DNA of 25,063 bases, the filler included, from an uncultured virus (IMG/VR IMGVR_UViG_2061766007_000575) (taxonomy: Duplodnaviria > Heunggongvirae > Uroviricota > Caudoviricetes). It is 2 parts of one record of this genome, joined end to end, with 100 filler letters (N's around TTAATTAATTAA, not from the genome) between each part and the next. Parts side by side here need not be neighbours in the genome. Positions count along the whole stretch, not along the records: positions 10,760 to 25,063 come from IMGVR_UViG_2061766007_000575; 1 more part is not named here. One strand, written 5' to 3'. Of the stretch, positions 3,030 through 25,063 are shown in pieces. Below the pieces are notes generated by a model. That model was not told where the DNA came from and did not search any database. It saw only the letters and a list, made by a program, of their open reading frames with translations. A program made the position numbers and the translations under genes. Numbering within the stretch: position 1 is the first letter of the stretch; each line of letters opens with the position of its first letter.

Positions 3030-3773
3030 ATGATAGGGATATATAAAATTACCAATAAAAATAACGGCTTAATTTATATTGGGCAAAGCAAAAATATAGA
3101 AAGAAGAAAGACAGAACATTTTAATAATAATAAATACAATCTGTCTGAAATAGATAAAACCATTCAATTAATTGGTGCTGAAAATTTTTCTTTTGAAGTT
3201 TTAGAAGAATGTTTAGCCGAAGAATTAGATCAAAAAGAAGAATATTGGATTCAATATTATGATAGTTATAATAATGGATATAATAAAACGAAAGGCGGCC
3301 AAGGTCGTTTTAGTGGCGGCAGACCCATTTTAACTGAAGAAGATGTAATTAACATAAGAAAAGCTTATGCTAATCGAGAAGAAAGAGATAGGGTTTATTT
3401 ATTATACCAAAACAAAATTACTAAAAATGGTTTTTTACAAGTGTGGCAAGGCAATAGGTGGAAAAATATAATGCCAGAAGTTTATACAGAAGAAAATAAG
3501 GAATATCAAAAACAAAAAGGCAAATTTAAAAGTGGTGGGGAGCATTTTAAAGCAGCATTTTCAAACGAAGAAGTCCTTTTAATAAGAAAAAGATATGTAA
3601 ATGAAACTGCTAAACAGATTTGGGAAGACTATCAAGATCGTTGTACTCTTGGTTCTTTTAAACAGATACTAATAGGAGTAAAGTATAGTAATCTTCCTAT
3701 ATATAAAAAACAACAAAAACAATGGATTAATATAGGAGAATATGATGAATTTAAAACAAATAATCGAGGATAG
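3030..3773 (+). CDS. Free-standing GIY-YIG homing endonuclease
   Basis: MIGIYKITN...IYIGQS...RxxEH, E..YWI, GYNKTKGG; two repeated C-terminal DNA-binding-like units; lies between gyrB and gyrA. Confidence 0.9.
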   Translation: MIGIYKITNKNNGLIYIGQSKNIERRKTEHFNNNKYNLSEIDKTIQLIGAENFSFEVLEECLAEELDQKEEYWIQYYDSYNNGYNKTKGGQGRFSGGRPILTEEDVINIRKAYANREERDRVYLLYQNKITKNGFLQVWQGNRWKNIMPEVYTEENKEYQKQKGKFKSGGEHFKAAFSNEEVLLIRKRYVNETAKQIWEDYQDRCTLGSFKQILIGVKYSNLPIYKKQQKQWINIGEYDEFKTNNRG

Positions 3774-15901: not shown

Positions 15902-16931
15902 AGTAATTGACAACTTAACTGAACAAGATATAATTGATTTAATGAGATATTTTGGAGTTACAAATTATAAAATGACTCCAGAAGCTATTATCTTTCCGAC
16001 AATTTGTCATAATGAAGATGCTGATAGTGCTTCTATGAAACTTTATTATTATCGAGATAATCACTTCTTTTATTGTTATACAGAATGCGGCGGTATTAGT
16101 GTTTTTAAATTTATTGAACACGTATATCAAACTCGTGGTATTGAATATGATTGGTATAACGATGTTTATCTTTTATTAACAAAGAAAAAACAAGAAGAAG
16201 GTTTTAAAACTGAAAAAAGAGAACTTCTTGGAGAAAAATATGGACGTAGAAGGCGCGCGACCCATCTAGATACTTATCCAGAAGGTGTTTTAGATGTCTT
16301 TGAAAAAATTTATCCAGCACAATGGTTAGAAGAAGGAATTTCTAAAGAAGCTATGGATAAATTCAACATAAAGTTTTCGATTTCTCAAAATAAAATTATC
16401 ATTCCGCATTATAATGTAGATGGTGAATTAGTTGGAATTAGAGGTCGCGCGCTGAATGCGTGGGAAGTTGAAAATATTGGTAAATATATGCCAGTTCAAA
16501 TTGAACAAAAGTGGTATAAACATCCATTGAGTTTAAATTTATATGGACTAAACAAAACTAAAGTCAATATAATGAAATATGGGATGGTTTTTCTGTTTGA
16601 GGGAGAAAAAAGCGTCCTTAAAATGGAAGGTTTTGAGCGACCGAACTGCGCGGTTGCAGTTTGCGGCAGTTCTATTAATAAATTTCAAATTGATATTTTA
16701 ATTAGGAATTGCGCGCCATCTGAGTTTATAATATGTTTTGATAAAGAAGAAGAAGGTTTAGAAGATAAGTATTTTAATAAGTTAAAAAAATTAGGAGAAA
16801 AGTACCAAAACTATGGGAATTTTTCTTTTATATATGATTTTCATAATAGATTAGACCTAAAAGATTCTCCAGTTGATAAAGGAGAAGAAATTTTTGAGCA
16901 GTTATTAAAAGAGAGAGTGAGGATTAAATAA
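15888..16931 (+). CDS. DNA primase (Zn-binding domain plus TOPRIM)
   Basis: TICHN...CYTECG; IIIPHYNVDGELVGIRGRAL; LYGLN; FEGEKS; ICFD. Confidence 0.87.
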   Translation: MNWLEVIDNLTEQDIIDLMRYFGVTNYKMTPEAIIFPTICHNEDADSASMKLYYYRDNHFFYCYTECGGISVFKFIEHVYQTRGIEYDWYNDVYLLLTKKKQEEGFKTEKRELLGEKYGRRRRATHLDTYPEGVLDVFEKIYPAQWLEEGISKEAMDKFNIKFSISQNKIIIPHYNVDGELVGIRGRALNAWEVENIGKYMPVQIEQKWYKHPLSLNLYGLNKTKVNIMKYGMVFLFEGEKSVLKMEGFERPNCAVAVCGSSINKFQIDILIRNCAPSEFIICFDKEEEGLEDKYFNKLKKLGEKYQNYGNFSFIYDFHNRLDLKDSPVDKGEEIFEQLLKERVRIK

Positions 16932-18649
16932 TGCAATATAAGCTAGTAAATGAAAACTTCAAGAGTGATTATGGGAAGAATCTACTGCGGGCGCGCGGTA
17001 TTACAAATATTAATGATTTTCTAAAACCAACTTCAATTTGTCTTCAAAGTCCAGAATTTTTGGACAATATTCTAAAAGGAACAGAAGTTTTAATAAAGAC
17101 TTTAAAAGAAAATAAACCAATTTTAATTATAGTTGATAGCGATGTTGATGGATATACATCAGCCGCGATCACATATCAATATATTATGACCGCTTTTAGT
17201 TACTTGAATCCAAATGTTCAATATAAGCTCCATAATGGTAAACAGCATGGATTAGAAGACCATATTGAAGAATTAATAAATGAAGATTGGGGATTAATTA
17301 TTTGTCCTGACTCTAGTTCTAATGATAAAGAATACCATGAAAAGCTGAATTGTCCGGTTCTAGTTTTAGACCACCATGAACTCGACCGCGATACGGCGCC
17401 AAACGCTATAATTATAAATAATCAGACTTCCCCTTATTATAATAACAAGGAACTGACTGGCGCTGGAGTCGCATATCAGTTCTGCCGCTATGTAGACTTT
17501 AGTTATACTCATGTCCATTATGCAAAAGACCTTATTGATCTCGCCGCTCTTGGTATTTGTGGCGATATGGGTTCAATGGCACAGATTGAAAATAGATATA
17601 TTTGTTATACTGGATTTAGAAATGTGAAAAATCCTTTCTTTAAAGCAATTCTTGAAAAGCAGTCCTATTCAACTGGTGGAAAGGTTAATCCAATGACAGT
17701 TGCCTTCTATGTTGTTCCAATGATTAATGCTATGATTAGAACAGGGACAATGGAGGAAAAGACAAGACTTTTTGAAGCTTTTATCCATGGAAATGAAATG
17801 ATTCCAAGCGGGAAGAGAGGCGCGAAAGGAACTTTAGAAAAAAGAGCTGTTGAAAGTGTAAGAGAATGTACAAATGCGCGCAGTCATCAAAATAAAATTC
17901 TGGATAAAAATGTTGAGAAGTTTGAGGATAGAATTTATAAATATGGGCTGTTAGATAATAGAATTTTGTTTGTAAGGTTGGAAGATGACGATGATCTACC
18001 TTCAGAATTAAATGGGTTACTTGCAATGAAGTTGGCGGCGAAGTATAAGAAGCCTACAATTGTGGCGCGGCTCAATCCTGAAGGATATGATAGAGGATCA
18101 ATTAGAAATGTAAGTAATTGCGCGCTAACTGATCTTAAAGCCTTTTTAAATGAAAGCGGATATTTTGAATATGTGCAAGGTCATGCTAATGCGGCCGGCT
18201 GCAGCATTTTAGACAAAGATTTAAGAGCTTTTCATGAATATGCTAATGACGCTCTTAGTACAATTGATTTTGGCGAAGGGGTCTATGATGTGAACTTCGT
18301 GAGGGCGGCCGCAGACTCAGATATTGAAGATATTATTTTTGATTTAGCTAATTATGAGGATACTTGGGGACAAGGCAATCCACAAGCTCTTATTTATGTG
18401 AGAGATTTAAACATTACAAAAGATGATTATCAGATTATGGGCAAGAATAAAGATACATTAAAGATTACAAAATTTGGTATTGCTTATATGAAGTTTTTTG
18501 CAAAAGATTTAATTCAGCAATTAGAACAAATGGATAAAATTAAGATAAATTTAGTTGGAAAGCCGAATTTAAATGAATATTGTGGCAATCTTATCCCGCA
18601 AATTTTTATTGAAGCTTATGAATTGGAGGACGATACCTTCGGTTTTTAA
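16931..18649 (+). CDS. recJ: RecJ-like ssDNA exonuclease (DHH/DHHA1)
   Basis: DSDVDG, HGL, LDHH, LTGAGV, RGSIR, GHANAAG. Confidence 0.92.
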   Translation: MQYKLVNENFKSDYGKNLLRARGITNINDFLKPTSICLQSPEFLDNILKGTEVLIKTLKENKPILIIVDSDVDGYTSAAITYQYIMTAFSYLNPNVQYKLHNGKQHGLEDHIEELINEDWGLIICPDSSSNDKEYHEKLNCPVLVLDHHELDRDTAPNAIIINNQTSPYYNNKELTGAGVAYQFCRYVDFSYTHVHYAKDLIDLAALGICGDMGSMAQIENRYICYTGFRNVKNPFFKAILEKQSYSTGGKVNPMTVAFYVVPMINAMIRTGTMEEKTRLFEAFIHGNEMIPSGKRGAKGTLEKRAVESVRECTNARSHQNKILDKNVEKFEDRIYKYGLLDNRILFVRLEDDDDLPSELNGLLAMKLAAKYKKPTIVARLNPEGYDRGSIRNVSNCALTDLKAFLNESGYFEYVQGHANAAGCSILDKDLRAFHEYANDALSTIDFGEGVYDVNFVRAAADSDIEDIIFDLANYEDTWGQGNPQALIYVRDLNITKDDYQIMGKNKDTLKITKFGIAYMKFFAKDLIQQLEQMDKIKINLVGKPNLNEYCGNLIPQIFIEAYELEDDTFGF

Positions 18650-18659
18650 GTTTGCTTAC

Positions 18660-18725
18660 ACAGCGGCCGAGTGTCCTTGCGCAATCAAGGAAGAACCAAA
18701 AAATCATTTGCCTCGGGCGCGCTGT
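18660..18725. other. GC-rich intergenic branched stem-loop of unknown function
   Basis: acagcg/cgctgt and ccgag/ctcgg outer stems; inner tccttg/caagga hairpin. Confidence 0.55.
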
Positions 18726-18731
18726 AGAAGT

Positions 18732-18760
18732 TTGACTTTTCCATAAAATTATGGTATAAT
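18732..18760 (+). promoter_or_regulatory. sigma70/sigmaA-like promoter
   Basis: TTGACT 18732-18737, 17-nt spacer, TGgTATAAT ending 18760. Confidence 0.85.
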
Positions 18761-18781
18761 TATTATATAAGGTAAGAAAAG

Positions 18782-18973
18782 ATGAGGTTAATTGAAGTAT
18801 TAAAAATCTTAGCTGCATATATTTGTGATTGGGACTGCCCGCTTAGTGCAGAACACGATGTAATAATTTTTAACACATATTATGATGATATCCCAAAAGA
18901 TGTATTAGAAACTTTAGATGAATTGGGTTGTTTTTATAGCAATGAATATGATAGTTCAATTATGTTTGTTTAA
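18782..18973 (+). CDS. Small acidic hypothetical protein
   Basis: 63 aa directly after the promoter; SD taaggt. Confidence 0.65.
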   Translation: MRLIEVLKILAAYICDWDCPLSAEHDVIIFNTYYDDIPKDVLETLDELGCFYSNEYDSSIMFV

Positions 18974-19030
18974 AGAAGTTAATAAAATTTGGAAGTTTAC
19001 ATAACTTTGTGGAGAGTTCCAAGATTTTAT

Positions 19031-19044
19031 CTACTTATATATAG
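19031..19044 (+). promoter_or_regulatory. Putative alternative (late?) promoter motif yTACTT-N5-TAG
   Basis: ctactt atata tag, then SD aaggtg and ATG 19056. Confidence 0.55.
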
Positions 19045-19055
19045 AAGGTGATGAA

Positions 19056-19796
19056 ATGATTGGAATTTATAAATACACCAATAAAGAAAATGGTAAAATT
19101 TATATTGGTCGCAGTTTAAATATAGCTAAACGCAAATGGGAACATTTAAAAAATCCATCTCCATATTCTTATTTTGATCAAACATTAGCAGCGATAGGTG
19201 AAGAGGCTTTTAATTTTGAAGTAATTGAAGAATGTACGGCCGAAAAATTAAAAGAAAGAGAAAAGTATTGGATTCAATATTATAATTGTTGTGTATTAGA
19301 TAATAGAAATGGTGGATATAACTTAACTCGTGGTGGTGAAGAATATAAGAGTGAAGAAAATCCGTGGGCACAATTAACTATTAAGCAAGTAGAAGAAATT
19401 ATTGATAAACTTGCTAATACAACTATTTCAATTCAACAATTAGCAAAAGAATATAAAGTACATCCCAATACAATTGGTAATATAAATAGATGTAAAACAT
19501 GGACTTGGTTACATAATTATCAAAGCAATATTAGAGAGAGCGTTCAAGGTAGTTTATATCATGGGGCCTTAAATGGTTGTGCAATAATAACCGAAGAAAT
19601 AGCAAAAAATATTATATATGATATTAAGTACAGTAATGAATCTCTGGCGGCTATTAGTCGAAAATATAAAATAAAAACTAGTTTAGTTTATGATATTAAT
19701 AGGTGCAGAACCTGGAAATATTTACATAATTTTAAGTATAATATTAGAAATGAGTTTAAGAAAGGTGGTGATGCTAATAATGAAGACTATAATTAA
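19056..19796 (+). CDS. Free-standing GIY-YIG homing endonuclease with two HTH-like repeats
   Basis: MIGIYKYTN...IYIGRS...RKWEH, EREKYWI, GYNLTRGG; duplicated INRC(K/R)TW.(W/Y)LHN..NIR units. Confidence 0.9.
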   Translation: MIGIYKYTNKENGKIYIGRSLNIAKRKWEHLKNPSPYSYFDQTLAAIGEEAFNFEVIEECTAEKLKEREKYWIQYYNCCVLDNRNGGYNLTRGGEEYKSEENPWAQLTIKQVEEIIDKLANTTISIQQLAKEYKVHPNTIGNINRCKTWTWLHNYQSNIRESVQGSLYHGALNGCAIITEEIAKNIIYDIKYSNESLAAISRKYKIKTSLVYDINRCRTWKYLHNFKYNIRNEFKKGGDANNEDYN

Positions 19797-22653
19797 AGAT
19801 TATCCCGGAAGTCTTCATAATTAGGGAACCATACAGATTATTCAAATATTAGATTAAGAGATTGTATAATTAAGACAGANNNNNNNNNNAGATTTAATTA
19901 AATATGCAAGTGAGCTTGGACATAAGGTTGTGGCGATAACTGATCATGAATGTCTTAGTAATCATGTTAAGGTTGAAAAAATAGCAAAAAAGTATCCAAA
20001 TATAAAAGTTATTCGTGGTAATGAGATTTATCTGTGCCGCAATAGTCTTAATGCAGATAATTATAATAGAGAAGTCGATCGTTATTATCACTTCATTCTT
20101 CTCGCAAAGGACGCAATTGGTCATCAGCAACTTAGAGAAATATCTACAAGAGCATGGCATCGTTCTTATATGGCGCGAGGTATGAGAAGAGTCCCAACAT
20201 ATTATCAAGATTTATTTGATATAATTGGTGAGAATCCTGGTCATGTGATTGGGTCAACAGCTTGTTTAGGTGGCGCGCTGCCGACGCAAATTTTAAGATA
20301 TATTGAACTTGCAAGAGGAACTGGACGAAACGATAAAGCATTAGAACTAGCAAATAAAATTGATATTTGGATTAAGCAAATGGATGAATTATTTGGTCAT
20401 GGAAATTTTTTCTTTGAACTTCAACCATCTGCATCTACAGAACAAACAATAGTTAATCAAGCATTATTGGAATACTCAGCAAAGTTTGATATTCCTTATA
20501 TTATAACAACAGATAGTCATTATCTTAAAAAGGAAGATGCACCGATTCACAAGGCGTTTCTTAACTCTCAAGATGGTGATCGTGAAGTAGATAGTTTTTA
20601 TGCGACTACTTATATGATGAGTACTGAAGAACTTGAATCTTACTTTAAAGGATATGAAAAAGAAGTATTAGAAACGGCTTATCAAAATATTTTAAAAATT
20701 AGCGAGATGTGTGAAGACTATTCACTTCTCAAATCTTTAAAAATACCTGAATTGACTTGGAAGAAGGCGCCGGCGCTCTCGACGTCTGATAAGGACAAAT
20801 GGTTTAAACTCATTCCTCAGTTATTTGAGTTCTATATGTCTGATTATGAAGGAGATAAACTTCTTTCTGAGCTTATAATTAATCGAATTAAGGATGATGA
20901 AACTCTTCAAAATGAAAAAACTTATAATGCAATAAATGAATGTCTTGAAATGACAAAAGTTTCATCTGAGGTCAATAAAACTCATTGGAGTGCATATTAT
21001 CTCAATCTCCAAAAAATTATTGATGTATGTTGGGAAGCAGGTAGTCTTGTTGGTCCTGGTCGTGGTTCTGGTGTCGGTTTTATTCTTCTTTATCTCTTGG
21101 GAATAACTCAAATTAATCCTCTGCGTGAAACAACTCCGACGTTTGCGTGGAGATTTTTGAATCCGGCGCGAGTCAGTGTGCTTGATGTTGACTTTGATAT
21201 TGAAGGTAGCCGGCGCGCAACTGTTTTGTCGAAGTTTAGAGAGGTTTATGGTGAAGATCGAGTATCAAATGTTGCAACTTTTGGTACTGAAAAGTCAAAG
21301 TCAGCAATATTGACGGCGGCGAGAGGTCTTGGGATTGATGTTGATACAGCTTCTTATATAGCGAGTTTGATCCCAGCTGATAGAGGATTAACTCGAACTC
21401 TTGATCAATGTATGTATGGTGATGAAGAGTCTGGTTTTGATCCGATTAAGCAGTTTGTAATAGAAATGACCGAAAATTATCCCGAACTTTGGGAAGTGGC
21501 GCATAAAATTGAAGGATTAGTTAATAGATTAGGACAGCATGCAGGTGGAGTTATATTTGTTGATGAGCCATTCACGAACTCAACCTCATTGATGCGGGCG
21601 CCGGATGATACAATCATCACAGCTTTCGACCTTCATGATTGTGAAGATGTTAGTTTGATTAAATATGATGCACTGTCGGTCGAAGCAATGGATAAGATTC
21701 ATATTTGTCTTGATTTATTGTGTGATGCAGGTTTTGTTGAGCGCAAATCAACTTTAAAAGAAACCTATGAAAGTGTTCTTGGTATTTATAATATAGAGCG
21801 CGATGATCCTAAAATGTGGGAAATGGTTTGGAACCATGAAATCTTCAGTCTATTCCAAATGGAAAAGCAAAGTGGTATCCAAGGTATCGCGCTCTCTAAG
21901 CCATCTTCGGTTGATGACTTAGCAACTCTTAACTCCGTTATTAGGCTAATGGCGCAAGAAAAGGGCGCTGAACAGCCTTTAAATAAATTTGCAAGATTTA
22001 AAGCAAACATTCAGAATTGGTATGATGAAATGAGTGCATATGGGTTAACATATGCAGAACAGAGGATTCTTGAACCACATCTTCTTCCATCAAATGGTAT
22101 TTGTGAATCACAGGAAGGTTTTATGCAGCTAGTTCAGATTCCTGAGTGCGGTGGTTTCGATCTGACTTGGGCGGATAGACTCCGTAAGTCAATTGCAAAA
22201 AAGAATCCAGCAGAATATGAACAACTAACAAAAGAATATTTTGAACGAGTTAAAGAAAAAGGGTTAAGTCCGAAACTTTGTAATTATGTTTGGAATGTAT
22301 TGGTTGCGACGAGTCGTGGTTATGGTTTTAATAAGTCACATACATTAGCTTATAGTTTGATAGCACTTCAAGAAATGAATTTGGCTTTCAAATATCCAAT
22401 AATCTTTTGGAATTGTGCTTGTTTGATAAGTGATAGTGGCGGCGCGGAAATCACAGAAGATGATGATGAAGAACCACAACTGAATTGTGAAGAAGAAAAA
22501 TATTATAATGAAATGGAAGAATTTGGGGAAGATGATTCCGAAGATGACATCGAAGATTCTTATGAAGAAGAAGATTGCGATGGATATCCAGCAGAAGTTG
22601 TAGTTCTCAAAAATGGTAAAAAGAAAAAGAAAGTCAAAACAACAAACTATGGT
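19780..22653 (+). CDS. dnaE: DNA polymerase III alpha (DnaE-type), exon 1; true start 19780, with an 8-nt frame-breaking insertion at 19819-19826
   Basis: SD aaggtggtg; MKTIIKDYPGSLH|NHTDYSN...AITDHE PHP motifs; GPGRGSG; catalytic DVDFD; HAGG; KYDALS; YGFNKSH. Confidence 0.92.
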
Positions 22654-22683
22654 AAAATTTTATAGAGTTTATATTAATAAATT

Positions 22684-22697
22684 TTACTTATAAGTAG
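22684..22697 (+). promoter_or_regulatory. Putative alternative (late?) promoter motif for the intron ORF
   Basis: ttactt ataag tag upstream of SD ggag and ATG 22727. Confidence 0.5.
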
Positions 22698-22726
22698 AAG
22701 ATAACAACAGACTACGGAGAAGTAAA

Positions 22727-23467
22727 ATGAAATATTCAGAAGAAACGATTCAAAAAATAATAGAGTTGCGTGAAAGTGGCAAAGGCGTAACTGAAATAGG
22801 AAGATTATTAAATCTTGACCGCGCGGCGGTATCAAGAAATCTTAAACAAAGAGGATATGATACTAGCCGTAATCCACTTATTAAAGACATTTTTCATGTT
22901 ATAGATACAGAAGAAAAAGCTTACTGGTTAGGTTTTCTATACGCGGATGGATATGTCTCAAAATATAATCAAATTGAAGTAAGTTTGTCTTTAAAAGATG
23001 AAGAACATTTGTATAAATTAAAAAAATTTATAAATACAAACACAAATATTATTAAAGATGACCACCGTTGTAGATTATTGTTCTGTAGTAAAGAAATGGC
23101 GGCAGACTTAGCAAAACTAGGGTGTATAAATAATAAAAGTTTAACTTTAACATTTCCTTCTGAAGAACAAATTCCTCAACATTTGTTAAGACATTTTTTA
23201 AGAGGTTATGTAGATGGAGATGGTTGTTTGTGCCATACAGATAAAACTCAACAGTTTAGCATTACCTCAACTCAAAAATTTTTTGATGGTATGTTACAAA
23301 GAACGGGATGGAGTCAAGATAAAAGTAACTATTATCCTAGCGGTCAAGCAATAACTTGGCGCTGTCATAAAGATGTAATGCCACAGTATTTAAAATATCT
23401 TTATGATAATAGTAATATATATTTGAATCGTAAATATGAAAAATATAAAACTCTCACTGCCGTTTAA
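22727..23467 (+). CDS. Intron-encoded LAGLIDADG homing endonuclease with N-terminal HTH
   Basis: EEKAYWLGFLYADG and HFLRGYVDGDG motifs; LNRKYEK C-terminus. Confidence 0.9.
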   Translation: MKYSEETIQKIIELRESGKGVTEIGRLLNLDRAAVSRNLKQRGYDTSRNPLIKDIFHVIDTEEKAYWLGFLYADGYVSKYNQIEVSLSLKDEEHLYKLKKFINTNTNIIKDDHRCRLLFCSKEMAADLAKLGCINNKSLTLTFPSEEQIPQHLLRHFLRGYVDGDGCLCHTDKTQQFSITSTQKFFDGMLQRTGWSQDKSNYYPSGQAITWRCHKDVMPQYLKYLYDNSNIYLNRKYEKYKTLTAV

Positions 23468-23689
23468 GTGAGAAATCATTTAAATAATGAGCGCGGAAAA
23501 AATCTGGAAGACTGAGATGTTAATCAGAGGTGAAGGCTTATGCCAGCCGCAACGCATAGGAAATGAAATAATTTTCCCACGAGGCCGCGCCACCCAAACG
23601 TAAAGTCGTGGGTGAAAAGATATGCTGAGCTTATGCGAATAAGAAGCATAAGAACTAAAGGATAAAAAGCCTTTAGGGTAACATAACTG

Positions 23690-23808
23690 AAAATAGCAAC
23701 AGCAATAGGTAAAATGAGGATGGCCGGCATTGAAGTTGCGCCGCCGGATATAAATGTTTCAACTTATACTTTCTCACCGGATGTTGAACATAACACAATT
23801 CGTTATGG
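23690..23808 (+). CDS. dnaE: dnaE exon 2, first part (variant duplicate at 24423-24512)
   Basis: KIATAIGKMRMAGIEVAPPDINVSTYTFSPDVEHNTIRYG, containing the PPDIN motif. Confidence 0.88.
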
Positions 23809-23818
23809 NNNNNNNNNN

Positions 23819-24412
23819 AGTTATTAATTCAACTAAATGATATGGAGTTCTTGCATATTTTTTTGCAATAAAACTATCTTCGCGCCGAATACCAGTTACT
23901 ATAATTTTATTCCCTCGACTTAACCATGATTTTTCAATAACATGCTTCTTACCATCAGCTCCGCGCTCACTAAGCTGTTTGTCATAATGAGTAAACACTT
24001 GACCAAAAATCTTTACCGTTACGACTCCACTTTTTGTGAGCAAAGTTACCATTTTCTTTGCTTTATCCTTATCAAGAACCGTTCCCATAATTCGGGTTAT
24101 TTTAAATAGAGGAACTTTTTTACCTTTTATAAAAATTACTCTATCAACAGGAGGCTCTTCCGGTAACTCATAAAAATCGCTAAAGTCATATAACTTCTCT
24201 TTTACTTTTGCTAATTCATGTTCATGGGAGTAAAAAGATACAGAATCCATTTCCCATTTACTAATTGTTCCAAGACAATATTTGTTCCATGTATCACTCA
24301 TTAATCTTGTGTTAATTGCATTGAGTAACTCATCATGATGAGCTTTTACATATGGACGAACTTTATCCATATTCTTTTTATAAATATTATCCCAAGAAGT
24401 TTGTTTGATGCG
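23819..24412 (-). CDS. dnaE: dnaE C-terminal (OB-fold) fragment, inverted in the scaffold
   Basis: ISKWEMDSVSFY, IMGTVLDK, VTVKIFG; bounded by N-gaps. Confidence 0.75.
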
Positions 24413-24522
24413 NNNNNNNNNNAATGGCCGGCATTGAGGTCGCGCCGCCGGATATAAATGTGTCAACTTATACTTTCTCACCGGATGTTGAACATAACAC
24501 AATTCGTTATGGNNNNNNNNNN

Positions 24523-24732
24523 GAAGCCGCCTTCTGCACTTTCTAATAAATCCATATCAAAGTTAGATTCATAGAATGGGAAGCTATTTTCATCTAAATC
24601 ATAATAATTTCCATCTTTAAACTTCTTTAAATATTTATTAAAGTTAAAGACCTTACACTCAAAGCTTAACTCGTCTGGTAACAATCCAAAATCAATTAAC
24701 ATTTTCATATTTTGAAGAGTTACTCTCTTCTT
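24523..24732 (-). CDS. dnaE: dnaE internal fragment (variant), inverted in the scaffold
   Basis: KKRVTLQNMKMLIDFGLLPDEL matches the + strand at ~24946-25063. Confidence 0.8.
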
Positions 24733-24743
24733 NNNNNNNNNNA

Positions 24744-25063
24744 TTAAGTGGTATTAGTAAAATTGGTGAAGATTTAGTTAAATCAATTTTATCTAATCGT
24801 CCATATGAATCAATTGAAGATTTAACTTCAAAAGTAAAAATAAATAAGCCGCAAGTCATTAATTTGATTAAGTCTGGCGCCTTCGACTTTTTAGGTGATA
24901 GAGTTGAAGTCATGCGGCAGTATGTAGCGAGTATTAGCGATCAAAAGAAGAGAGTAACTCTTCAAAATATGAAAATGTTAATTGATTTTGGATTATTGCC
25001 AGATGAGTTAAATTTTGAGTGTAAGGTCTTTAACTTTAATAAATATTTAAAGAAGTTTAAAGA
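24744..25063 (+). CDS. dnaE: dnaE exon 2 continuation (HhH region), runs off the window
   Basis: LSGISKIGEDLVKSILSNRPY...NLIKSGAFD continues directly from IRYG. Confidence 0.88.

Follow-up and report, generated by a model that had tools for sequence, protein, structure and literature searches.

The DNA that we analysed (the window) is a 25,063-nucleotide stretch from an uncultured phage, and it carries on its plus strand a gene for a DNA polymerase III alpha of the DnaE/YorL-like type. The body of this dnaE gene (19830..22665) runs from CAT at 19830 to a stop codon at 22663-65 and encodes PHP, Pol III alpha NTPase and finger domains (Pfam PF02811, 1.8e-15; PF07733, 3.1e-54; PF17657, 1.7e-18). 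The best protein matches are SPbeta YorL and the DnaE-like polymerases of Enterocloster phages, which belong to the same protein family and likewise have a RecJ-like exonuclease neighbour upstream, at only 37-38.5% identity over 400 aa. Nucleotide and protein searches found no close cultured relative. Immediately upstream lies a 246-aa ORF (19056..19796, plus strand) for a GIY-YIG homing endonuclease (Pfam PF01541, E 3.2e-08) of a type that we call GIYa. Its final 17 nt overlap the start of dnaE out of frame, and the Shine-Dalgarno-like sequence for dnaE, AAAGGTGGTGA (19761..19771), sits within its 3' end.

The 5' end of dnaE does not join the body in one frame. From ATG at 19780 a 14-codon ORF (ORF1, 19780..19821) reads MKTIIKDYPGSLHN and ends in the Asn codon AAT (19819..19821), which is followed directly by an in-frame TAG (19822..19824). 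After GG (19825-26) comes a second Asn codon, AAC (19827..19829), and CAT ACA GAT TAT TCA then continues as NHTDYSNIRLRDCIIKT.. in a frame offset by 8 nt. The 8-nt coding gap TAGGGAAC (19822..19829) thus consists of the stop, GG and the AAC codon, and excising it restores the ..SLHN / HTDYS.. motif that is unbroken in 116 intact relatives. The original prediction was that ribosomes cross this gap by a short programmed bypass, with AAT as the take-off and AAC as the landing codon. When we re-read the window sequence, the layout it had described, from the Shine-Dalgarno sequence and the ATG through AAT-TAG-GG-AAC to the 8-nt offset, was borne out exactly.

The window contains 15 ten-N joins, one 141-N run and one N44-TTAATTAATTAA-N44 linker, and is therefore a pseudomolecule of small contigs. 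One of the joins, at 19880..19889 between ..IIKT and DLIKYASELGH.., was overlooked in the original prediction, and only 51 nt separate it from the gap. In so fragmented a pseudomolecule the 8 nt could be a sequencing or assembly artefact close to a contig end. However, contigs from 4 of 4 runs, representing four bovine-gut studies, bridge 19822-19829 without an indel. In run X1, which may be where the window comes from, a 5,059-nt contig at depth 40.5 spans 19300-19879 with 0 differences and 0 gaps and continues for 319 nt, and the three other studies supply bridging contigs with 0 indels (X5 record 3; X6 records 7, 8 and 9; X7 record 12). No inserted or omitted letters are listed across all 4 runs. 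In addition, an independent 36-kb contig (L078) carries a junction identical to that of the window. These contigs exclude the sequence error that had been named as an alternative, and the artefact is refuted as far as contigs allow; we give it practically no chance. The ten-N join itself is not biology and has zero length, since removal of the Ns brings the frame back (GA|A), L078 is 100% identical to 19840-19909 of the window with the Ns taken out, and the intact relative L007 reads ..IIKTEDLIKYA.. at this position. It is the sole interruption of the dnaE body, whose reading frame is open for 924 codons from 19891.

We then compared SPbeta-YorL-like dnaE genes, grouped at 99% identity into 158 non-redundant clusters among the matches listed. 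A gap of 4-12 nt was present in 41 of the 158, always within the same HxH segment, where it takes one of four sites, which we numbered 4, 5, 6 and 10 along G-S-L-H-N-H-T-D-Y-S. A stop codon opens each of the 24 gap types (18 TAG, 3 TGA, 3 TAA), which places a slow-to-decode A-site codon immediately 3' of the take-off codon, as TAG 19822-24 is placed in the window. The landing triplet is identical to the take-off codon in nine types and synonymous with it in seven, against a background of 0.03-0.07. Sixteen of the 24 types therefore have a cognate landing codon, as with AAT and AAC in the window, and eight do not; in these eight the triplet is non-synonymous (AGC, CAA, TAT, AAT or ACT), five of the types being one letter off and three matching, as typed, at a single letter only. 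At the site used in the window, gaps of 5, 7, 8, 10 and 11 nt occur, and the 3' AAC is kept in all of them. Because stop-first gaps recur within one 7-codon stretch in 41 of 158 non-redundant relatives, chance can be excluded. Alignment of related dnaE 5' ends had been proposed as a check on the 8 nt, and both the identical junction in L078 and the recurrent stop-first gaps speak for them. An exact-pattern scan of viral contigs across the junction gave 0 matches, and we found no analogous dnaE gaps in print.

Gap lengths at homologous sites are 4, 5, 7, 8, 10, 11 and 12 nt, with a remainder modulo 3 of 0 in two types, 1 in eight and 2 in 14. Since all three classes occur, no single frameshift direction can serve. 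Frameshifting at the stop, which for 8 nt means -1 or +2, or readthrough would translate part of the gap and place 2-3 extra residues between the Asn and the second His. Recoding at shifty stops is a known class of event, SD-like GGG, GAGG or GGTG is found inside site-5 gaps, and a distant relative (L074) has CTT TGA C, a classic RF2-type +1 site. However, closely related cassettes with gaps of 4, 5, 7, 8, 10 and 11 nt at the same site, together with the in-frame 12-nt type, would call for +1 in one case, -1/+2 in another and readthrough in a third. CAT AAT TAG offers no slippery heptamer, and TAA at 19818-20 closes the -1 frame, so that a shift would have to take place within a single codon. 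The added residues would also break an H-x-H spacing that is fixed in 116 of 116 intact relatives, and the cognate landing triplets would be left unexplained. We consider decoding by frameshift or readthrough unlikely. Two further candidates were rejected. Reassignment of the stop codon is at odds with the use of all three stops and with the frame change in most gaps, and a tRNA scan of the window, which is part of one genome, gave 0 genes, so that no suppressor tRNA is seen there. An upstream exon split off by a large intron was rejected as well, since the conserved YPGSLH is encoded by ORF1 itself, which 8 nt separate from the resume point.

The gap coincides with the edge of a mobile element. 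The window endonuclease is 96% identical to its L078 homologue, and identity between the two sequences is 90-100% over 19000-19909 and about 80% in the flanks. Homology to L078 begins at 18984, and homology to the cassette-free relatives L007 and L076 begins exactly at 19827, the first letter of the landing codon, which is also where the native letters of the invaded gene begin. The L007 and L076 edge and the L078 identity profile thus show the sequence to be polymorphic for presence, with a sharp boundary where the landing codon begins. The X6 and X7 contigs have loose ends, which diverge on the upstream side of 19755. The cassette (18984..19826, plus strand; 5' edge approximate, 3' edge exact) comprises the endonuclease gene, a replacement dnaE 5' end, and the stop and spacer. 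A distant-mode nucleotide search of cultured phages with 19000-20400 returned only a 61-nt endonuclease match, in two Pseudanabaena phage records.

Among the matches listed, and counting loci with at least 800 nt upstream, a GIYa, GIYb or HNH endonuclease gene adjoins dnaE in 21 of 36 gap loci and in 0 of 110 intact loci (Fisher p = 4.6e-16). The families pair with particular sites, GIYa with sites 4 and 5, GIYb with site 6 and HNH with site 10, and GIYa was seen next to dnaE only in loci gapped at sites 4 and 5. Six intact loci have another endonuclease, GIY-YIG/NUMOD1, without a gap, and an endonuclease at dnaE therefore does not always require one. Descendants without the endonuclease keep an intact gene and the gap; AAAGGTGGTGA is kept in such variants, and homology to one of them, L077, begins at 19761. 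An endonuclease that adjoins the interrupted gene and is correlated with the gap is the arrangement of a MobA/gene 60-type cassette. Our data show that the cassette is mobile and endonuclease-linked.

We found that the gapped genes are under strong purifying selection. In the clade with the 12-nt gap, dN/dS is 0.018-0.028 at pS 0.21-0.39 in all 10 pairs, and it is 0.05-0.17 in other gap groups, values to be read with the horizontal movement of cassettes in mind, since divergence between gap-sharing gene bodies need not all post-date the gap. Constraint is seen on both sides of the gap: pN/pS is 0.26 over the 13 codons 3' of it and, in 40 gap-bearing sequences, 0.19 over the last six ORF1 codons up to the first His, where YPGSLH is kept in 34 of the 40 even though Ser and Leu codons switch family. 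An open frame of about 1,300 codons is found in six gapped genes. Three gap-bearing genomes, 82-99% complete, each have one PF07733 match and no family A or B polymerase.

These results bear on two readings in which the full-length protein is not made. If the gapped dnaE were dead, a host polymerase would replicate these phages. Additional in-frame stops occur in the gap loci L100 and L148, as they do in the intact loci L147 and L149, and some gapped copies may therefore be dead. As a general account this is highly improbable in the face of a dN/dS of about 0.02 in a clade with the gap in all five lineages, the six long open genes, and the endonuclease-less descendants that retain an intact gene and the gap. 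Moreover, 41 of 158 lineages are gapped, and the window sequence, with a contig depth of 40, was found in 4 studies. Alternatively, the 14-codon ORF could be a decoy or coupling ORF, with the polymerase starting downstream (at GTG 19930 in the window) and working without the HxH strand. Some Pol III alpha PHP domains have lost metal ligands, and an ATG, GTG or TTG lies in the resume frame just 5' of the resume codon, within 15 codons, in 15 of 41 gap loci, so that re-initiation is possible in this subset. However, the first start falls anywhere from -15 to +110 codons, and in the window, at +30, it would remove the HxH motif and the first strand. The segment would be expected to evolve freely, yet it is constrained before and after the gap as described above. 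We regard a decoy ORF as quite unlikely.

The sequence just upstream of the take-off codon can form a 9-bp stem. Its 5' arm, AUGAAGACU (19780..19788, plus strand), comprises the start codon and codons 2-3, and its 3' arm, AGUCUUCAU (19810..19818, plus strand), comprises the Ser-Leu-His codons, the nine letters that abut the take-off codon on its 5' side. In our pairing analysis 87.7% of cells for the stem were paired, against 34-53% in slid controls. Median duplex energy was -10.9 kcal/mol in site 4/5 cassettes and -5.4 kcal/mol in intact genes, and 0 of 116 intact genes attained the cassette median. In each of the four site classes, the stem shifts its position with the take-off site (MWU p = 9e-6, 2e-10, 0.01 and 1e-5), although these p-values, like the Fisher value above, overstate independence because the sequences are related. 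Stem z-scores were computed against mononucleotide shuffles. Alignment A2 yielded only one clearly compensatory pair, and coding also constrains the 3' arm. There is no stem-loop inside the gap in the window; a take-off hairpin within or after the gap was rejected as a general feature, as it occurs at a few site-10 loci only (L021, L111) and is absent from the window.

A hairpin that ends directly 5' of the site could also favour removal of the gap in RNA, by a micro-intron, by processing and ligation, or by RNA polymerase realigning past it after the hairpin, and the original prediction had pointed to the U before the gap and the G at its end. However, a self-splicing fold cannot fit in 4-12 nt, and the U...G ends are not conserved across types. 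The 8 nt of the window are too short for a group I intron or other self-splicing RNA, and an Rfam search over 18600-23808 gave 0 matches at E <= 0.1. Neither the stop as obligatory first gap codon (24 of 24 types) nor the match of take-off and landing at the level of codons would be explained. We hold removal in RNA to be very unlikely. The micro-intron and re-initiation, both raised in the original prediction, therefore fit the comparative evidence poorly.

The comparative sequence evidence supports instead the short programmed bypass with matched AAU and AAC codons and an intervening stop. The stop comes first in every type, a cognate landing codon is present in 16 of 24 against the 3-7% expected, lengths vary, a conserved stem keeps in step with the take-off codon, and both flanks of the gap are under purifying selection. 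We therefore think it likely that ribosomes read these endonuclease-linked cassettes by hopping, as they do in T4 mobA/gene 60. The resemblance to T4 gene 60 that had been predicted is closer than was noted at the time, since here, as in the MobA element, the gap marks where a homing-endonuclease cassette ends on its 3' side.

The events may be pictured as follows. A cassette of about 840 nt has inserted itself at the beginning of the sole DNA polymerase gene of the phage, bringing a GIY-YIG gene, a ribosome binding site in the 3' end of that gene, 14 replacement dnaE codons, and a stop plus two letters; the 8 nt are its 3' edge, and native dnaE picks up again at AAC. By analogy with T4 MobA/gene 60, the gap would split the endonuclease target in the conserved HxH-coding DNA, so that carriers would be immune and gap-less relatives would be cut and converted. 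After translating ..SLHN the ribosome would stall with TAG in the A site, peptidyl-tRNA-Asn would let go of AAU, the mRNA would slip by 8 nt, and the tRNA would re-pair at AAC. Decoding would restart at CAU, and the ..LHNHTDYS.. metal-binding motif would be exactly restored. The stem may be part of the proposed signal, and its role is speculative: it might push forward slippage by re-forming behind the ribosome, or it might limit ribosome loading.

The bypass of T4 gene 60 sits within the MobA homing-endonuclease element (Bonocora 2011 via PMC5009743; bioRxiv 10.1101/2022.08.31.505936). As far as the consulted parts of these sources describe it, the T4 system shares with dnaE an endonuclease ORF directly 5' of the new start of the interrupted gene, overlapping it out of frame (17 nt in the window; 8-32 nt according to Manning and Atkins, bioRxiv 10.1101/2022.08.31.505936), a stop after the take-off codon, matching take-off and landing codons, and a 5' stem-loop upstream of take-off. 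In the same portions of text, the T4 gap also persists while the endonuclease is often degenerate or lost, and one kind of cassette is served by different endonuclease families. The shortest gap in the consulted part of bioRxiv 10.1101/2022.08.31.505936 is 20 nt, against 4-12 nt in dnaE. There are further differences from T4 gene 60, which has a 50-nt gap. The 8 nt of the window, like the other dnaE gaps, are too small for an internal take-off stem-loop, the interrupted gene is dnaE and not a topoisomerase II gene, and the stem takes in the start codon. Rather than dividing the gene into two, the cassette lies at its extreme 5' end, and the nascent peptide is therefore only 12-19 residues long. 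Within one 7-codon stretch there are no fewer than four separate sites and three types of endonuclease. The T4 lineage is marked by a MobA-type HNH enzyme and a topoisomerase target, and the window has a GIY-YIG (PF01541) enzyme and a dnaE target. By its layout the window element would work like the T4 element, and by its enzyme and target it is not a member of the T4 lineage.

Known synthetic stop-hops are inefficient, and the byp elements of mitochondria are 27-55 nt long and are not known to be endonuclease-linked. Such synthetic stop-hops were engineered in E. coli (Weiss et al. 1987, as described in PMC5009743), and the consulted part of that review knows of no natural in-frame stop-hop. 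In the Streptomyces phage Hau3 terminase a natural gap is bypassed, and mass spectrometry verified the junction in E. coli (PMC10732093). Like Hau3 and the Magnusiomyces mitochondrial byp elements described there, the dnaE genes would have natural coding gaps skipped by translating ribosomes; unlike the dnaE genes, Hau3 has at some sites the rare UUA codon in place of a stop, and the term 'homing endonuclease' occurs 0 times in PMC10732093. In contrast to the synthetic E. coli stop-hops, the dnaE layout is natural, conserved, mobile and located in a gene that is essential, and an in-frame gap of 12 nt is among its types.

To our knowledge, natural bypassing is known from very few systems, namely T4 gene 60 and its homologues, one yeast mitochondrion and phage Hau3. 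In dnaE, an essential gene, we find a much smaller signal, in dozens of natural forms. In the window, from a cattle-gut phage, dnaE is broken 14 codons in, and hopping, a very rare way to read a gene, is judged from sequence to be the most likely one. We are inclined to believe, with somewhat less assurance than for hopping itself, that the 4-12 nt gaps are a widespread modular class of natural hop signals, composed of stop, spacer, cognate landing codon and stem. Three or more unrelated families of homing endonuclease would have adopted them independently to protect their carriers in the most conserved stretch of the polymerase. The natural variation in gap length, stop, landing codon and stem offers a ready-made mutational series for what a ribosome needs to hop, and the idea that an endonuclease comes with its own immunity insert, drawn from a single T4 locus, is extended by the cassettes to several families of nuclease. 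Gene callers will label gapped polymerases as truncated or as pseudogenes, and replication modules in gut and rumen viromes are therefore mis-annotated. If the reading of the gaps as a modular class of hop signals is true, a ribosome can make short hops efficiently on much less information than T4 gene 60 implies, and such hopping may be a general, overlooked and cost-free route by which selfish nucleases disrupt their target sites in essential genes.

The layout described in the original prediction matches the window sequence and its translation letter for letter. On the plus strand a 14-codon dnaE frame, MKTIIKDYPGSLHN, begins at ATG 19780 and ends with AAT (19819-19821), which is followed directly by TAG (19822-19824). 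After GG the reading is resumed, displaced by 8 nt, at AAC (19827-19829) CAT ACA GAT TAT TCA, which reads NHTDYSNIRLRDCIIKT.. on the same strand. A domain search identified PHP, Pol III alpha and finger domains; the gene encodes a DnaE-type polymerase whose closest cultured relatives, Enterocloster phages and the SPbeta group (SPBc2 YorL), share only 37-38.5% identity with it. Upstream, a RecJ-like gene occupies 16931-18649 and a GIY-YIG endonuclease ORF 19056-19796; the last 17 nt of this ORF overlap the dnaE start. In some relatives the RecJ-like gene is itself split by inserts (L009, 1341-1580; L021, 263-1177, with a GIY-YIG ORF).

The original prediction had listed a sequence error as one alternative. 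We found the stretch in bovine-gut metagenome runs of several studies and compared Logan contigs from four studies with the window. In run X1, a possible source of the window, a 5,059-nt contig (depth 40.5) spans 19300-19879 with 0 differences and 0 gaps and extends 319 nt beyond the N join. Contigs from three other runs, X5 (record 3), X6 (records 7, 8 and 9) and X7 (record 12), bridge 19822-19829 with 0 indels, and the listings for the four studies' runs show neither insertions nor omissions of letters. The 8 nt are therefore real DNA, and an artefact, contradicted by these bridging contigs, accounts for the gap less well than a translational hop does. One X5 contig departs from the window directly after TAGGG and continues AGCCAT.., a sister gap type, and the X6 and X7 contigs part from the window upstream of 19755 and represent variants that lack the endonuclease gene.

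Small contigs joined into a pseudomolecule make up the window, which has 15 runs of ten N, a single run of 141 N and an N44-TTAATTAATTAA-N44 linker; the original prediction did not mention the ten-N run at 19880-19889. At 10 of the 15 ten-N runs, this one included, the Ns split a codon of the longest open frame after its second letter, so the frame is restored once they are deleted. With the Ns dropped, L078 (a gapped relative) is 100% identical to the window over 19840-19909, and L007 (an intact, that is gap-less, relative) reads ..IIKTEDLIKYA.. across the join. Both relatives thus show the join to be of zero length. Breaks between the second and third letter of a codon in a long open frame are far from random phase; one idea is that they could sit at variable third positions in a mixed-strain assembly. 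Beyond 23809 (23809-25063) the order is scrambled: a piece of about 90 nt is duplicated (23714-23808 and 24423-24512), the C-terminal part of dnaE runs in reverse orientation at 23819-24412, and other pieces overlap each other, a pattern that suggests an assembly graph of mixed strains.

Protein-guided scans covered 55 viral loci, 20 loci from metagenome-assembled genomes, and the best 80 of 532 metagenome and best 80 of 377 viral matches. A script classified 234 loci with a 5' end, plus the window, as intact (165), gapped (59), unparsed (8), without the anchor motif (2) or too short (1). By eye, five of the unparsed loci have an in-frame 12-nt gap and three are intact; the two without the motif are L070, which is intact, and L074, in which one additional T makes CTT TGA C. 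Collapsing the listed loci at 99% identity gave 158 clusters: 116 intact, 41 gapped (window counted) and L074. Thus the alignment of dnaE 5' ends, which the original prediction had proposed as a check, shows that gaps recur among relatives. On its 36-kb contig L078 has the window's exact junction, though its polymerase is only 82% identical over 220 residues. In L074, a 48%-identical relative with no endonuclease upstream, the extra T (about nt 2950-2990) falls inside ..NLRLL|DCINK..; CTT TGA C is the classic release-factor-2 type +1 shift site, and the T may be a homopolymer error.

We found gaps at four places in G-S-L-H-N-H-T-D-Y-S: site 4 follows the first His, site 5 (the window's) follows Asn, site 6 follows the second His and site 10 follows Ser. 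There are 24 combinations of take-off codon, gap and resumption, from 22 distinct gap strings, with lengths of 4 nt (1 type), 5 (2), 7 (3), 8 (11), 10 (4), 11 (1) and 12 nt (2). A stop opens the gap in 24/24 types (TAG 18, TGA 3, TAA 3). The last gap triplet, the landing codon, is identical to the take-off codon before the stop in 9 types, synonymous in 7, one letter off in 5 and two letters off in 3, against a pooled synonymous-triplet background of 0.03-0.07. Several imperfect landing triplets could, we infer, pair with the same anticodon through G-U wobble, such as AGC for Asn or UAU for His. Related cassettes that share the window's site have TAAAC, TAGGAAC, TAGGGAAC, TGAGGAAC, TAGGGTGAAC and TAGGGTTGAAC, in which mid-gap indels alter the length and the 5' stop and 3' AAC stay constant. 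Removal of the gap from the RNA leaves the obligatory stop and the codon matching unexplained, and frameshifting would have to proceed by three distinct mechanisms in sister cassettes and would put extra residues into H-x-H; both fit less well than a hop. In site-5 gaps, an SD-like GGG, GAGG or GGTG also lies close before the landing codon (19822-19826 in the window), a possible landing aid to judge from the letters; site-4 and site-10 gaps have none. Site-4 gaps of 8 and 12 nt (L009, L118 and relatives) resemble an imperfect tandem copy of the preceding 10 letters, TAGTTTACAT, which hints at an origin by duplication.

In the window AUGAAGACU (19780-19788) is the exact complement of AGUCUUCAU (19810-19818), which ends directly 5' of AAU. 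Across 24 site-4/5 sequences the 11-pair helix has 87.7% of its cells paired, a share that falls to 34-53% once the partner is shifted by 1-3 columns, and one pair varies on both sides (G-C in 15 sequences, A-U in 8). Pairing of the G-S-L-H codons with the 44 nt upstream had a median duplex energy of -10.9 kcal/mol across 28 site-4/5 cassettes; for the 116 intact genes the median was -5.4, and 0/116 reached -10.9. We then scored the 12 nt just 5' of every possible take-off codon, comparing users of a site with the rest. With kinship ignored, so that for these metagenomic assemblies of related lineages the p-values overstate independence, the values (MWU) were -9.4 vs -5.8 at site 4 (p 9e-6), -11.5 vs -5.5 at site 5 (p 2e-10), -10.6 vs -4.6 at site 6 (p 0.01) and -8.0 vs -5.0 at site 10 (p 1e-5). 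The stable stem is thus found in the cassettes that use that take-off site. Since its partner is always the gene's first codons, cassettes have N-termini of their own (MKT.., MINR.., MTS..), unlike those of intact genes (MEK.., MEY..). Whole folds of 98 nt had a mean z of -1.34 in 39 gapped loci and +0.10 in 112 intact loci, relative to mononucleotide shuffles.

The ORF adjoining dnaE was identified by Pfam and tblastn. GIYa, the type in the window, is confined to gaps at sites 4 and 5 (15 clusters); GIYb accompanies site 6 (1 cluster) and HNH accompanies site 10 (6 clusters). Where the upstream sequence was 800 nt or longer, one of these was present in 21/36 gapped vs 0/110 intact clusters (Fisher p = 4.6e-16, kinship ignored); one of the 21 holds a 19-residue remnant. 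The 15 gapped clusters with adequate upstream sequence and no endonuclease retain in alignment the ORF's final letters and the ribosome-binding site before the ATG; homology between the window and one of them, L077, runs from 19761 on. A different GIY-YIG/NUMOD1 enzyme adjoins intact dnaE in six clusters (L030, L042, L061, L090, L160, L171) and evidently needs no gap. Against L007 and L076, the closest cassette-free relatives, homology begins exactly at 19827, the AAC, and identity to L078 is 90-100% across 19000-19909 and about 80% on either flank. Therefore the gap forms the edge of a mobile cassette that provides the endonuclease, a ribosome-binding site, 14 new first dnaE codons and TAGGG, with native dnaE picking up at the landing codon. 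A second GIY-YIG-like stretch, at 3030-3326, matches residues 1-103 of the 19056 endonuclease at 54% identity.

The gapped genes look functional from their sequences. Beyond the gap, six have an open frame of 1,295-1,309 codons, and the majority of the rest reach the locus end first. All five lineages of a 12-nt clade keep the gap at 21-39% synonymous-site difference, with dN/dS of 0.018-0.028 in 10/10 pairs; in other shared-gap groups dN/dS is 0.05-0.17. Because cassettes move horizontally, part of the divergence in all these groups may pre-date the gap. In 31 gapped sequences the 13 codons that follow the gap show pS 0.84 and pN/pS 0.26; the six before the first His have pN/pS 0.19, and YPGSLH is retained in 34/40 although Ser and Leu codons switch family. 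In each of three phage genomes that bear the gap, with completeness estimates of 99, 96 and 82%, Pol III alpha was matched exactly once and no polymerase of family A or B was found. Gene death is contradicted by the long open frames, the purifying dN/dS and the single polymerase. Re-initiation downstream leaves the selection on both sides of the gap unexplained and finds no consistent start, the first in-frame one lying at -15 to +110 codons (+30 in the window). Both account for the gap less well than a hop.

Other interruptions were seen in dnaE. In the window, homology to full-length relatives ends at about 22659 and resumes at about 23690; this insert of roughly 1,030 nt (22660-23690) holds a LAGLIDADG ORF (22727-23467, PF14528) and probably represents a group I intron that carries an endonuclease of its own, although Rfam gave no match. 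Intron-like inserts near codon 420 occur in 2 gapped and about 10 intact clusters. At this hot spot (codon 415-432) structured inserts that begin ..GGAGATTAACCC..GGTCTCC.. in gapped and intact genes (L081, L231, L090, L027, L103, L233, L029, L046, L219) look like group I introns, some with GIY-YIG ORFs. Isolated in-frame stops in otherwise conserved dnaE were found in gapped L100 (nt 1573, TAG at a conserved Trp position) and L148 (nt 2158, TAG TAG in place of Lys-Gln) and in intact L149 (nt 3115, TAG at the Ala of conserved H-A-G-G) and L147 (nt 2452, TAA). These could be nonsense variants, readthrough or further in-frame hops.

Taken together, a stop that occupies the A site, a cognate codon shortly after it, gap lengths in every class modulo 3, exact restoration of a metal-binding motif with fixed spacing and the take-off-linked RNA stem argue for a translational hop. 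In such a hop, peptidyl-tRNA-Asn would detach from AAU and, after a shift of the mRNA by 8 nt, pair anew at AAC. By analogy with T4, the stem may help drive the slip and the gap may give immunity to the endonuclease. As far as the accessible text of the Manning and Atkins preprint (bioRxiv 10.1101/2022.08.31.505936) goes, the architecture of the dnaE cassette matches that of the MobA/gene 60 element. However, the dnaE gaps are 4-12 nt, compared with 50 nt in T4 and a shortest of 20 nt in that text, and the dnaE cassettes differ in target gene, sit at the very start of the gene, have a stem that takes in the start codon and occupy several independent sites. The words polymerase, dnaE and PHP have 0 occurrences in the accessible text, and full-text searches, which covered listings, abstracts and passages from a library with few subscription-journal papers, turned up no account of gaps like these in any phage polymerase gene.
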